Positions 2,985 through 34,685 of a DNA stretch of 63,620 nt are shown one piece after another. Under the pieces are notes generated by a model, which saw nothing but the letters and a program-made list of their open reading frames with translations, did no database searches and was not told where the DNA came from. Every line of letters starts with the position of its first letter. Positions within the stretch are counted from its first letter, which is position 1. The stretch is from Bacillota bacterium. GTDB taxonomy: Bacteria; Bacillota; Limnochordia; DTU080. The stretch spans positions 1-63,620 of the forward strand of contig DUQB01000159.1 of the NCBI GenBank assembly GCA_012838035.1. Reading direction: 5' to 3'. The translations under genes were made by a program, and so were the position numbers.

Positions 2985-3062
2985 GGTCGGGCTGACAAGA
3001 TTCGAACTTGCGACCTCTTGACCCCCAGTCAAGCGCGCTAAACCAAACTGCGCCACAGCCCG
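2984..3062 (-). tRNA. tRNA-Pro (anticodon GGG)
   Basis: Cloverleaf with acceptor stem CGGGCTG/CAGCCCG, anticodon arm CTTGA-CTGGGGG-TCAAG, T-loop TTCGAAT, and encoded ACCA end. Confidence 0.97.
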
Positions 3063-32296: not shown

Positions 32297-33829
32297 TTAT
32301 TTCGCGTACTCGACGGATCGAGTTTCTCGAATTACAGTGACCTTAATTTGCCCTGGATATTCAAGCTCAGCTTCAATCCGCTTGACTATATCGCGTGCAA
32401 TTTTGGTTGCAGCGGCGTCATCCACCTTATCCGGTTTGACGATGATTCTAATCTCGCGACCGGCTTGGATGGCATACGACTTCTCTACGCCGTCGAAACT
32501 GTCGGCGATGGCCTCGAGTTTCTCCAAGCGCTTGATATAGTTCTCCAGTGTTTCGCGACGTGCGCCGGGCCGCGCCGCCGAGATGCTGTCCGCCGCGCTG
32601 ACCAGCACAGCTTCTACCGTGTGAGGTTCATAATCGCCGTGGTGACACTCCATGGCATGAATGACTTCACGAGATTCACGGTACTTGCGCAGCAGGTCGC
32701 GACCGATCTCCAAGTGAGTTCCCTCAACCTCGTGATCAACCGCTTTACCTATGTCGTGCAATAAACCGGCACGTTTTGCAACTTGGACGTCGCCGCCTAT
32801 TTCCGCTGCCATAATGCCGGCCAGATGACTCACTTCTATACTGTGTTTAAGCACGCTCTGCCCGTAGCTGGTACGGAAACGCAGCCGCCCCAGAAGCTTG
32901 ATCAACTCCGGATGGAGTCCGTGCACCCCCGTGTCGAAGGTTGCTTGTTCTCCCGTATCGCGGATGACTTGATCAACTTCCTTCTGCGCCTTCTCCACCA
33001 TCTCCTCAATCCGAGCCGGATGAATACGGCCGTCGGCGACCAACTTTTCAAGAGCAATCCGAGCAATTTCACGTCGGATGGGATCAAAACCGGATAGGAT
33101 AACCGCTTCCGGAGTGTCGTCGATAATCAGATCTATGCCCGTGAGTGTTTCCAGAGTGCGAATATTACGGCCTTCGCGCCCGATGATCCGCCCTTTCATA
33201 TCATCACTGGGCAGGTTGACAACCGACACCGTACTCTCGGTAACATGGTCGGCTGCACAACGTTGAATCGCCAAGGAGACAATGTTGCGCGCACGTCTGT
33301 CTCCTTCTTCACGTGCTTCAGTTTCGATCTCTTTAATCTTCATCGCCATTTCATGGCGAACTTCGTCTTCAGTGCGCTTCAGTAGGAAATTCCTAGCCTC
33401 TTCGCCGGTCATGCCGGCAAGCCTTTCCAGTTCTTGCTGCCAGTACTCCGACATGCTGGAGACTTTGGCTTGCGCAACCTCTAATTCTTGCTTTTGTTGC
33501 TCAATCAACCGTTCCCTTATTTCAATCTGTTCAGTCTTCTTTTCCAGACTTTCTTCTTTGTTAATAAGGCGACGCTCATGTTGGTTCAGCTCATTACGGC
33601 GCTCGCGTAGTTCACGCTCGCTTTCGCTGCGCATTTTGTGCACTTCTTCTTTTGCTTCCAACAGAACTTCGCGTTTTTTAGCTTCCGCATCTTGCCCGGC
33701 TTGTGCGACGATTCGTTTGGCCTCCGACTCTGCGGAGCCCAACTTGGCTTCAGCCATAGAGCGACGCACGTAGTAGCCGAGAGCAAATGCAACTATCCCT
33801 ACGACAATGGCTATAACCGTTGCTAATAT
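32297..33829 (-). CDS. rny: Ribonuclease Y (probable ATA start, including the N-terminal TM helix)
   Basis: Coiled coil, KH motif ([12 protein letters not shown]), HD domain ([19 protein letters not shown]); in-frame [22 protein letters not shown] helix upstream of the annotated GTG. Confidence 0.95.
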
Positions 33830-33911
33830 ATTGTTCTACCTCCCTTCACTCAATGATCCGCATTACATTTTCGTCAGGATTACAGGCAGAGACCTGGGAA
33901 ACCGAGGGTTA

Positions 33912-34025
33912 CAAAGAAAGCCGAGCGCATAACTCGGCTTACAGTCATACCATTGGTACTTCCGTATGAGGTGAACCCCGGGAGACGACCCAAGCTGACT
34001 CTACCGTATGGGGAACTAAAGCCCA
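33912..34025 (-). ncRNA. Candidate structured leader or sRNA upstream of rny, ending in an intrinsic terminator
   Basis: P1 AGUCA/UGACU, P2 CUUGGG/CCCGGG, terminator AAGCCGAG/CUCGGCUU followed by UCUUU. Confidence 0.55.
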
Positions 34026-34031
34026 ATGTTT

Positions 34032-34060
34032 ATTTTATTCTGTGTCGGATTGAATGTCAA
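34032..34060 (-). promoter_or_regulatory. Near-consensus sigma-A promoter embedded in the recX 3' end
   Basis: TTGACA-N17-TAAAAT; the -10 element overlaps the recX stop codon. Confidence 0.75.
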
Positions 34061-34685
34061 CATCAGGAACCACCTGCGTTAGGCACCAACGTATGGTTGA
34101 CCAATCGAATCCGCGGCGTTGTAATAAGGCAGCCAAGCGCCGCACCGCCGCATCTCGCTTTTCCGGCGTCGTCGGTCGCCATGCCTTAAGGGCTATTTGG
34201 AGCGCTCTTTGCCGTTCTTCCGCGGCGTCCAGTTCAGATACGACTTCTCGAGCCAGTTCCCGCTCTACGCCGCGACGGGCAAGCTCTTCTTGAATACGGC
34301 GCAGACCAAACTTACCTTGGCGTTGCAGGGAAGCAGCCAGGTTTCTGGCATACGCGGCATCATCGATATAACCCAACTCCTGCACACGCTGTACGGCGGC
34401 CTGACACGCCGCGCAACTGAACCTTTTTTGCCGCAGTTTCTTAAGCAAACCCTGCTTTGATAGAGGCGTGCGTGCAATCATATCGAGCGCGGCTCTACGC
34501 GCCAATATGGTTTCCGCCTGCGCGCCGAGTTCATTGCGCTCCGCTTGCGTTAGTTCGCTTCCCACTCGCAGTTGCCGCGAGACTAGAAGCTCATCGGGAC
34601 ATAGCAACACCGACTCATCATGCCAACTAAGCCGATATAAACCTGGTCTACGCGTCTTCTTAATGCTTATCAGCACACATTTCAT
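34035..34685 (-). CDS. recX: Regulatory protein RecX
   Basis: ALDMIAR, GYIDDAAYAR, I.EELARRGV, LQRRGF motifs; follows recA. Confidence 0.9.
   Translation of the reverse strand: MKCVLISIKKTRRPGLYRLSWHDESVLLCPDELLVSRQLRVGSELTQAERNELGAQAETILARRAALDMIARTPLSKQGLLKKLRQKRFSCAACQAAVQRVQELGYIDDAAYARNLAASLQRQGKFGLRRIQEELARRGVERELAREVVSELDAAEERQRALQIALKAWRPTTPEKRDAAVRRLAALLQRRGFDWSTIRWCLTQVVPDVDIQSDTE

Follow-up and report, generated by a model that had tools for sequence, protein, structure and literature searches.

A conserved structured leader RNA predicted upstream of the RNase Y gene rny in a Limnochordia bacterium

The window considered here is the whole 63,620-nucleotide stretch of DNA analyzed, from contig DUQB01000159.1 of a Bacillota bacterium of the Limnochordia (DTU080). 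The sequencing runs that contain this sequence come from anaerobic digesters and biogas reactors. On the minus strand, cinA (37196-35907), recA (35742-34693) and recX (34685-34035) are followed, after a 205-nt gap, by rny, a 185-aa ORF (32154-31597) and spoVS (31509-31246). The identities of RecX, RNase Y and SpoVS are backed by Pfam, and the match to the RNase_Y_N profile begins at residue 4 of the extended rny reading frame. The 185-aa ORF in the rny-spoVS interval is uncharacterized and has no Pfam match; loci of the same clade carry a gene of 175-200 aa at the same place, and in B. subtilis this position is taken by ymdB.

Comparative material was obtained in two ways. A scan with the Rny protein gathered 80 rny loci, whose sources are Clostridia and Negativicutes, and the clade of the window was found through closer Rny proteins. 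By protein identity, the clade members are L081 (95%), L087 (85%), a group at 81-83% (L085, L001, L088, L089, L090 and L083) and L093 (78%). All keep the order recX, leader, rny, with the exception of L087, a short contig that covers only part of the leader. The leader of a further locus, L214, equals that of L090 over the stretch compared. Searches of the 80 rny loci with the leader of the window, using blastn and nhmmer, matched a terminator-like hairpin alone. The preliminary description had recognized no named riboswitch in the gap, and cmscan of 33600-34300 against Rfam 15, on both strands and with permissive filters, agrees with it, giving no match at E values up to 10. Full-text literature searches turned up no published account of an rny leader that contains a terminator.

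A sigma-A promoter is predicted within the end of recX, where it had been placed from the first (Table 1). TTGACA-N17-TAAAAT matches the sigma-A promoter at 11 of 12 positions and is the top promoter-like site in 19 kb, and an equivalent of the form TTGAC[AT]-N16-18-TAnn[AC]T precedes rny in 74 of 81 loci. Transcription is predicted to start at about 34025 (34024-34027). The GGGCUU at the start of the transcript is conserved in the window and in L081, L085, L001, L088, L089 and L090; the local hairpin P0 has an energy of -3.3 kcal/mol in the window and of -3.7 to -9.1 kcal/mol in relatives. A leader peptide was considered for a 48-aa ORF (33880-34026) and set aside, its frame being broken by a 1-nt length difference in L081. 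In the Negativicutes, the rny leaders of L002, L013, L014, L015 and L020 have a motif of their own in common, CCAAUCGUGUAA, in the first ~20 nt right after the promoter.

Table 1. Features of the predicted rny leader, in the order of transcription
Feature	Position	Strand	Remark
-35 box TTGACA	34055..34060	-	within last recX codons
-10 box TAAAAT	34032..34037	-	overlaps recX stop TAA (34037-34035)
5'-terminal motif GGGCUUUAGUUCCCC, weak local hairpin P0 (GGG/CCC)	34010..34024	-	begins about predicted start
Candidate antiterminator strand	34014..34023	-	pairs with 33946-33936, 10 bp, one bulge
P1 5' strand (UACGGUAGAG)	33999..34008	-	long-range helix
P2 hairpin CUUGGG-UCGUCU-CCCGGG	33977..33994	-	CUUGGG 33994-33989, CCCGGG 33982-33977; -8.2 kcal/mol
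P3 hairpin UACGG-AA-GUACC-AAU-GGUAU-GA-CUGUA	33940..33966	-	minimum-free-energy fold, window and L081
P4 terminator-like hairpin AAGCCGAGU-UAUGC-GCUCGGCUU (GCCGAG/CUCGGC)	33918..33940	-	9 pairs, 5-nt loop
U-rich tail UCUUUGU	33911..33917	-	highest conservation in the family at CUCGGCUUUCUU
C-rich post-terminator segment (AACCCUCGG UUUCCCAGG)	33893..33910	-	site of the best SD-complementary element of relatives
P1 3' strand (CUCUGCC-U-GUA)	33881..33891	-	pairs with 34008-33999
A/U-rich linker, folded domain to SD	33848..33880	-	CUGACGA(A/G)AAUGUAAUG common to window and L081
Shine-Dalgarno (SD) AAGGGAGGU	33838..33846	-	relatives: GAAGGGGGUG at the same place
AUA start codon of rny, non-canonical	33827..33829	-	probable

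The dominant conserved helix of the leader is P1, a long-range pairing around the terminator-like hairpin that the structural model of the preliminary description had missed. In the window, U34008-G33999 pair with C33891-A33881, with U33884 bulged, and the helix closes a 128-nt domain (34008-33881) that encloses the hairpin. The 134 nt from 34010 to 33877 fold at -53 kcal/mol, compared with -36.8 +/- 3.9 kcal/mol for shuffled sequences (z = -4.17), and the corresponding z scores of seven relatives are -4.87, -2.89, -2.91, -4.56, -3.47, -5.52 and -1.60. P1 is found in every minimum-free-energy fold of the window and the seven relatives, is predicted by RNAalifold unguided, and is unbroken in 9 of 9 sequences of the pair table. 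Its positions vary as A-U versus G-C (window versus all others), U-A versus A-U, C-G/U.G/U-A and A-U/G-C/G.U/C-G; between the window and L081 there is a clean double change (CAUACGG/CCUGUA versus CAUGCGG/CCUGCA). Cognate strands pair at -14.8 kcal/mol and non-cognate strands at -11.4 kcal/mol, a difference equaled by one of 20,000 permutations.

A covariance model of the whole domain was seeded with L085, L001 and L087 only, which align well, because MAFFT alignments across subclades misplaced the 3' strand of P1 and the 5' arm of P4; the remaining sequences were realigned by the model. It matches L081, L090, L089, L088 and the window at full length, with E values of 3e-9 to 6e-6 that are rough owing to a short calibration. 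The match in the window, which contributed no sequence to the model, spans 33876-34010 on the minus strand and model positions 1-138 (35.2 bits, E = 6.4e-6). The model finds nothing comparable in the other rny loci, and it misses L083, L093 and L157, though hairpin and SD complement are present there. Pairing on the model alignment, which leans towards the model, reaches 92.2% of cells, compared with 28-52% if the partners are shifted; for P1 the figure is 98.2%, with changes on both sides in three of seven pairs. The covariation score is 0.211 versus 0.174, with 19 of 500 shuffles as high. With only 8-9 distinct sequences to draw on, covariation in the leader family is modest.

Inside P1, the local hairpin P2 had been drawn correctly from the start: it is kept in all relatives, with its arms swapped outside the window and L081, and a U-to-C change in L081 replaces a G.U pair by G-C. 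RNAalifold pairs the 5' arm of P2 with a distal CCCGG; this was rejected, since by hand pairing the same L081 change is a mismatch there and strengthens the local hairpin. In P3, an A-to-G change in L081 keeps a G.U pair, and beyond these two sequences P3 aligns without confidence in more distant relatives. All elements of the preliminary description are in the sequence at the coordinates given, but only some go beyond chance; its five-base-pair helix (AGUCA/UGACU), its antiterminator and its anti-SD pairing do not. At -3.7 kcal/mol, the five-base-pair helix is invariant in L081 and absent outside the two closest sequences. It overlaps long-range P1 and P3 and is incompatible with the helices present in the minimum-free-energy fold.

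P4 has the appearance of an intrinsic terminator, as had been claimed: five of its nine pairs are G-C, it folds at -13.5 kcal/mol and is followed by a U-rich tail, it is among the two best terminator-like sites in 19 kb, and it recurs before rny in relatives. A G+C-rich hairpin with a U-rich tail thus lies between transcription start and SD, which is the layout of an intrinsic-terminator attenuator. Among the 74 rny loci with a promoter, 27 have a terminator-like hairpin between promoter and SD; one of the 27, L030, has an upstream gene that is unlike recX by eye. Distant Clostridia and Negativicutes also have the stem CCGAG...CUCGG before rny. P4 is paired in 100% of its cells on the model alignment, but the stem hardly varies, and covariation therefore gives no proof of its pairing. 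In a metagenome scan for GCCGAGN{3,14}CTCGGCTTTCTT, one of the 120 matches listed adjoins rny (L157), which marks the stem as a common terminator form that is not specific to rny and makes a poor probe. A second copy of the 3' arm of P4 is seen ~20 nt downstream of it on the minus strand (CCUCGGUUU at 33902-33908 versus GCUCGGCUUU at 33920-33926); similar second copies occur in relatives, and in read-through RNA such a copy could pair with the 5' arm.

These features also bear on the possibility that the gap is an ordinary gene boundary, with P4 serving as the terminator of recA-recX, the rny promoter placed before it by coincidence, and no regulatory role for the remaining pairings. Such an arrangement would fit with the lack of any other terminator between the recX stop and P4, with the common occurrence of the form GCCGAG...CUCGGCUUUCUU elsewhere, and with L037, where a hairpin of the type found in the rny leader (AAAGCCGAG...CUCGGCUUUU, 2993-3020) is also present after the rny stop codon. 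It sits poorly with the order of promoter, ~100 nt, terminator and SD, which recurs across many lineages, with the strongly negative z score of the 128-nt domain and the compensatory changes in P1, and with a whole-domain model that finds relatives outside its seed. A simple boundary is regarded as quite unlikely.

If P4 does halt transcription, its action may be controlled from upstream. The antiterminator first proposed, AGCUUGG/CCGAGUU, is present in the window at -8.8 kcal/mol and drops to -4.2 kcal/mol in L081 through a C-A mismatch, which by hand pairing comes from the same U-to-C change as in P2. The best upstream partner of the terminator 5' arm is instead 34023-34014, whose partner stretch 33946-33936 takes in 5 nt of that arm and which pairs at -11.2 kcal/mol versus -13.5 kcal/mol for the terminator in the window. 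In general, the terminators (-12 to -15 kcal/mol) are stronger than the 5'-terminal pairing, and local P0 also competes. Across 28 rny leaders with a terminator, the best partner of the terminator 5' arm falls in the first ~30 nt in 14, versus 5.1 expected (p about 1e-4, by a statistic that ignores relatedness). The 5' motif resembles the terminator 3' arm, and the two vary together: in L083, the 5' motif and the terminator arms read GGGU, ACC and GGU where others have GGGC, GCC and GGC, and L085 has GGCUUC in 5' motif and 3' arm alike. From these sequence patterns, the 5'-terminal GGGCUUUAGUU is a better-supported antiterminator candidate than the one proposed before, with its function being putative.

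A promoter-proximal folded domain followed by a terminator is also the classical layout of an attenuator of the riboswitch type, in which binding of a metabolite or of some non-RNase protein to the domain would determine termination at P4, with no RNase feedback involved. The conservation and stability of the domain could be read in this way, as could the different folded domains and strong terminators found upstream of rny in other Clostridia. Against this, P1 encloses the terminator, which means that the 3' strand of P1 is transcribed only once termination has been decided; no conserved junction core of the aptamer kind stands out in the leader, its most conserved stretch being the terminator 3' arm and tail; and Rfam returned no match. 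Ligand sensing of this kind is considered unlikely.

Downstream of P4, a very strong SD is combined with a weak start. The ATA start codon of the preliminary description is probable: it fits the frame, and nine clade members carry AUA or AUU at 8-10 nt behind GGNGG and show no canonical start ahead of the membrane anchor. Such a start is apparent in the window, L081, L085, L001, L087-L090 and L083. A weak start codon on a strong SD recalls infC. Candidate starts differ elsewhere, being AUU, AUC or AUA at 4-12 nt in Negativicutes (L002, L013-L015) and L030, UUG at 8-10 nt in loci of the Desulfitobacteriaceae type, AUG in L011 and GUG in L093.

Masking of the SD by upstream RNA had been suggested for the pair GUUCACCUC/GAGGUAGAAC. 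This pairing exists in the window (-12.5 kcal/mol), but the corresponding L081 strand, GAUAUCUC, reaches only -6.7 kcal/mol with the SD unchanged, and four other segments of the leader match the SD about equally in the window (-11.7 to -13.1 kcal/mol). Over ~3 kb, the best SD complement falls 3-40 nt after P4 in 6 of 11 loci. The C-rich segment of the window pairs weakly with the SD (-9.1 to -9.9 kcal/mol); in the window and L081, the best SD-complementary segment after P4 is the P1 3' strand, in which UCUGCCU (33890-33884) can pair with AGGUAGA (33840-33834) at the SD (-12.5 kcal/mol). The P1 5' strand contains GGUAGAG, a near-repeat of the GGUAGAA found at the SD, which makes P1 and SD masking mutually exclusive. 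Cognate specificity of the anti-SD pairing is weak, with 529 of 20,000 permutations as good (p about 0.03). The post-terminator strand is thus a better candidate for SD masking than the earlier pair, and in the window no better than several alternatives.

Ten metatranscriptome runs contain the region, as assembled contigs only, in which RNA ends are not mappable. In 8 of the 10, contigs cover the leader from end to end, continuing past P4 as far as the SD or the rny ORF; none ends at P4 (33912-33918), and contigs cannot reveal partial termination. In six runs a contig stops at 33985-34006 without entering recX, and four runs have contigs that connect recX to the leader. The contig ends at 34005/6, 33844-48 and 33766/7 are confounded by strain differences and low depth, and readings of them as a 5' end (34005/6) or as a cut at about -15 were rejected, with depth at 2-8x and the ends at 34005/6 lying 1-2 nt from position 34007, which differs between the window and L081. 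Contig ends were not taken as RNA ends, because the strain difference at 34007 breaks assembly graphs and runs labeled 'DNA?' break nearby, at 34009-34016 and 33852-33871. Four runs labeled 'DNA?', at 82% likeness, yielded no sequence variants.

The contigs and the comparative data both bear on a further reading, in which the product is a stand-alone sRNA of ~114 nt, running from 34025 to about 33912 and acting in trans or on rny mRNA from the same promoter, or in which the long-range duplex is a target of RNase III, providing cross-regulation between RNases. An own promoter and a terminator-like 3' end would suit an sRNA, and B. subtilis RNase III cuts long-range intramolecular duplexes, with sites detected within RNase transcripts (PMC11780869). 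However, the element stands directly before rny in every relative, as do all matches of the covariance model, so conservation independent of the downstream gene is not found; conservation also passes the terminator (P1 3' strand, C-rich element), which makes the functional unit longer than the short RNA, and contigs run through P4. For RNase III, P1 is short, at 10 bp with a bulge. Both versions are judged quite unlikely.

Taken together, conservation, the covariance model, fold z scores and the empty Rfam search uphold the outline of the preliminary description, a promoter-driven structured leader of rny with a terminator-like hairpin, while most of its specific pairings have been replaced. 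To judge from sequence and predicted structure, the gap holds a real, conserved and uncatalogued structured non-coding leader of rny. The favored reading (probability roughly 0.6) is a cis-acting leader of about 195 nt that would combine partial termination with control of translation or stability, with RNase feedback as its favored, putative logic.

By computation, the sigma-A promoter in the end of recX gives a transcript with a predicted start near 34025 that opens with the GGGCUU motif and continues into the 128-nt domain, with P1 as the closing helix, P2, P3 and P4 inside it, and a UUUCUUU tail. The A/U-rich linker, the very strong SD and the weak, probable AUA start follow. Under the favored reading, P4 would halt part of the transcripts from the leader's own promoter, as well as recA-recX transcripts, and pairing of the transcript 5' end (34023-34014) with the P4 5' arm would favor read-through. 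In read-through RNA, P1 would occupy the post-terminator strand, which could otherwise pair with the SD. Loss of the 5' leader, through RNase Y cleavage or RNase J trimming, would then lower both read-through and translation, which would amount to negative feedback on RNase Y synthesis. A more specific version is offered tentatively and may well be wrong: the leader could sense its own 5' end, such that an intact ~12 nt (GGGCUUUAGUU) allows read-through, its removal by RNase Y or RNase J during transcription leaves the terminator to form, and loss of the P1 5' strand in finished RNA leaves the SD masked, with sequence-unrelated versions of the same device across Firmicutes.

Among known systems, the closest is the 5' UTR of B. 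subtilis rny, which has a length of 164 nt, a sigma-A promoter and one of the strongest SDs (PMC10303841). RNase Y autoregulates there by cutting within the first 50 nt of the UTR and within the first ~100 nt of the ORF, and RNase J1 is blocked near -15 (PMC10303841). The two leaders are alike in gene, sigma-A promoter, very strong SD, A/U-rich 5' region and 5'-proximal stem-loop, and probably in purpose, namely feedback on the level of RNase Y; at about 195 nt, the present leader has the own sigma-A promoter, the UTR of about 160-200 nt and the very strong SD of the B. subtilis type. They differ in start codon, which is AUA here, and in the partner of the SD, which is the first 13 codons in B. 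subtilis and one of the upstream candidates here. A long-range helix around a terminator was not found in the published description of B. subtilis rny, and the word 'terminator' has 0 occurrences in Korobeinikova et al. 2023 (PMC10303841), which makes the analogy one of function, not of structure.

Other comparisons are more partial. Leaders of E. coli rne (Rfam rne5, RF00040), rnc and pnp are likewise cis-acting structured elements through which a ribonuclease controls its own mRNA; these operate by mRNA decay, not by a promoter-proximal terminator, belong to other enzyme families, and gave no cmscan match. Attenuators and riboswitch platforms of Firmicutes share the hairpin with U-rich tail before the SD and an upstream strand that competes for the 5' arm. 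Here, in contrast, competition comes from the extreme 5' end of the transcript and the closing helix spans the terminator; unlike riboswitch platforms, the rny leader has neither an aptamer-like conserved core nor a known ligand. Stabilizers with a strong SD as their basis, namely the STAB-SD of cryIIIA and the aprE and hbs leaders, resemble it in a very strong SD and a 5' stem-loop possibly blocking RNase J1, as has been proposed for B. subtilis rny (PMC10303841); such stabilizers are without an internal terminator or a long-range domain.

A different common folded domain is seen in the rny leaders of Desulfosporosinus/Peptococcaceae type (L007, L008, L009, L017 and L027; about 1230-1500). 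UAACCUU/AAGGUUA closes this domain, which also has a second, competing copy of AAGGUU and a conserved UUCUUAUAGAU; a strong ACUGG...CCAGU(7-10) terminator comes after it. This looks like a separate, riboswitch-like family of rny leaders.

RNase Y begins the decay of most Firmicutes mRNAs, and its level sets mRNA lifetimes globally. To our knowledge, control of that level is known for B. subtilis only, and there only as mRNA cleavage. With its terminator, closing helix, strong SD and weak start, a conserved leader of this build would bring both transcription and translation into the control of RNase Y, and it would give concrete, mutable base pairs for studying how cells sense their RNA-degrading capacity. 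If the tentative 5'-end sensor is true, the leader of the main decay nuclease would itself serve the cell as a direct gauge of its RNA-degrading activity. Terminator-containing rny leaders are present in many Clostridia (27 of 74 loci) and may represent a widespread, as yet uncatalogued theme among regulatory RNAs.
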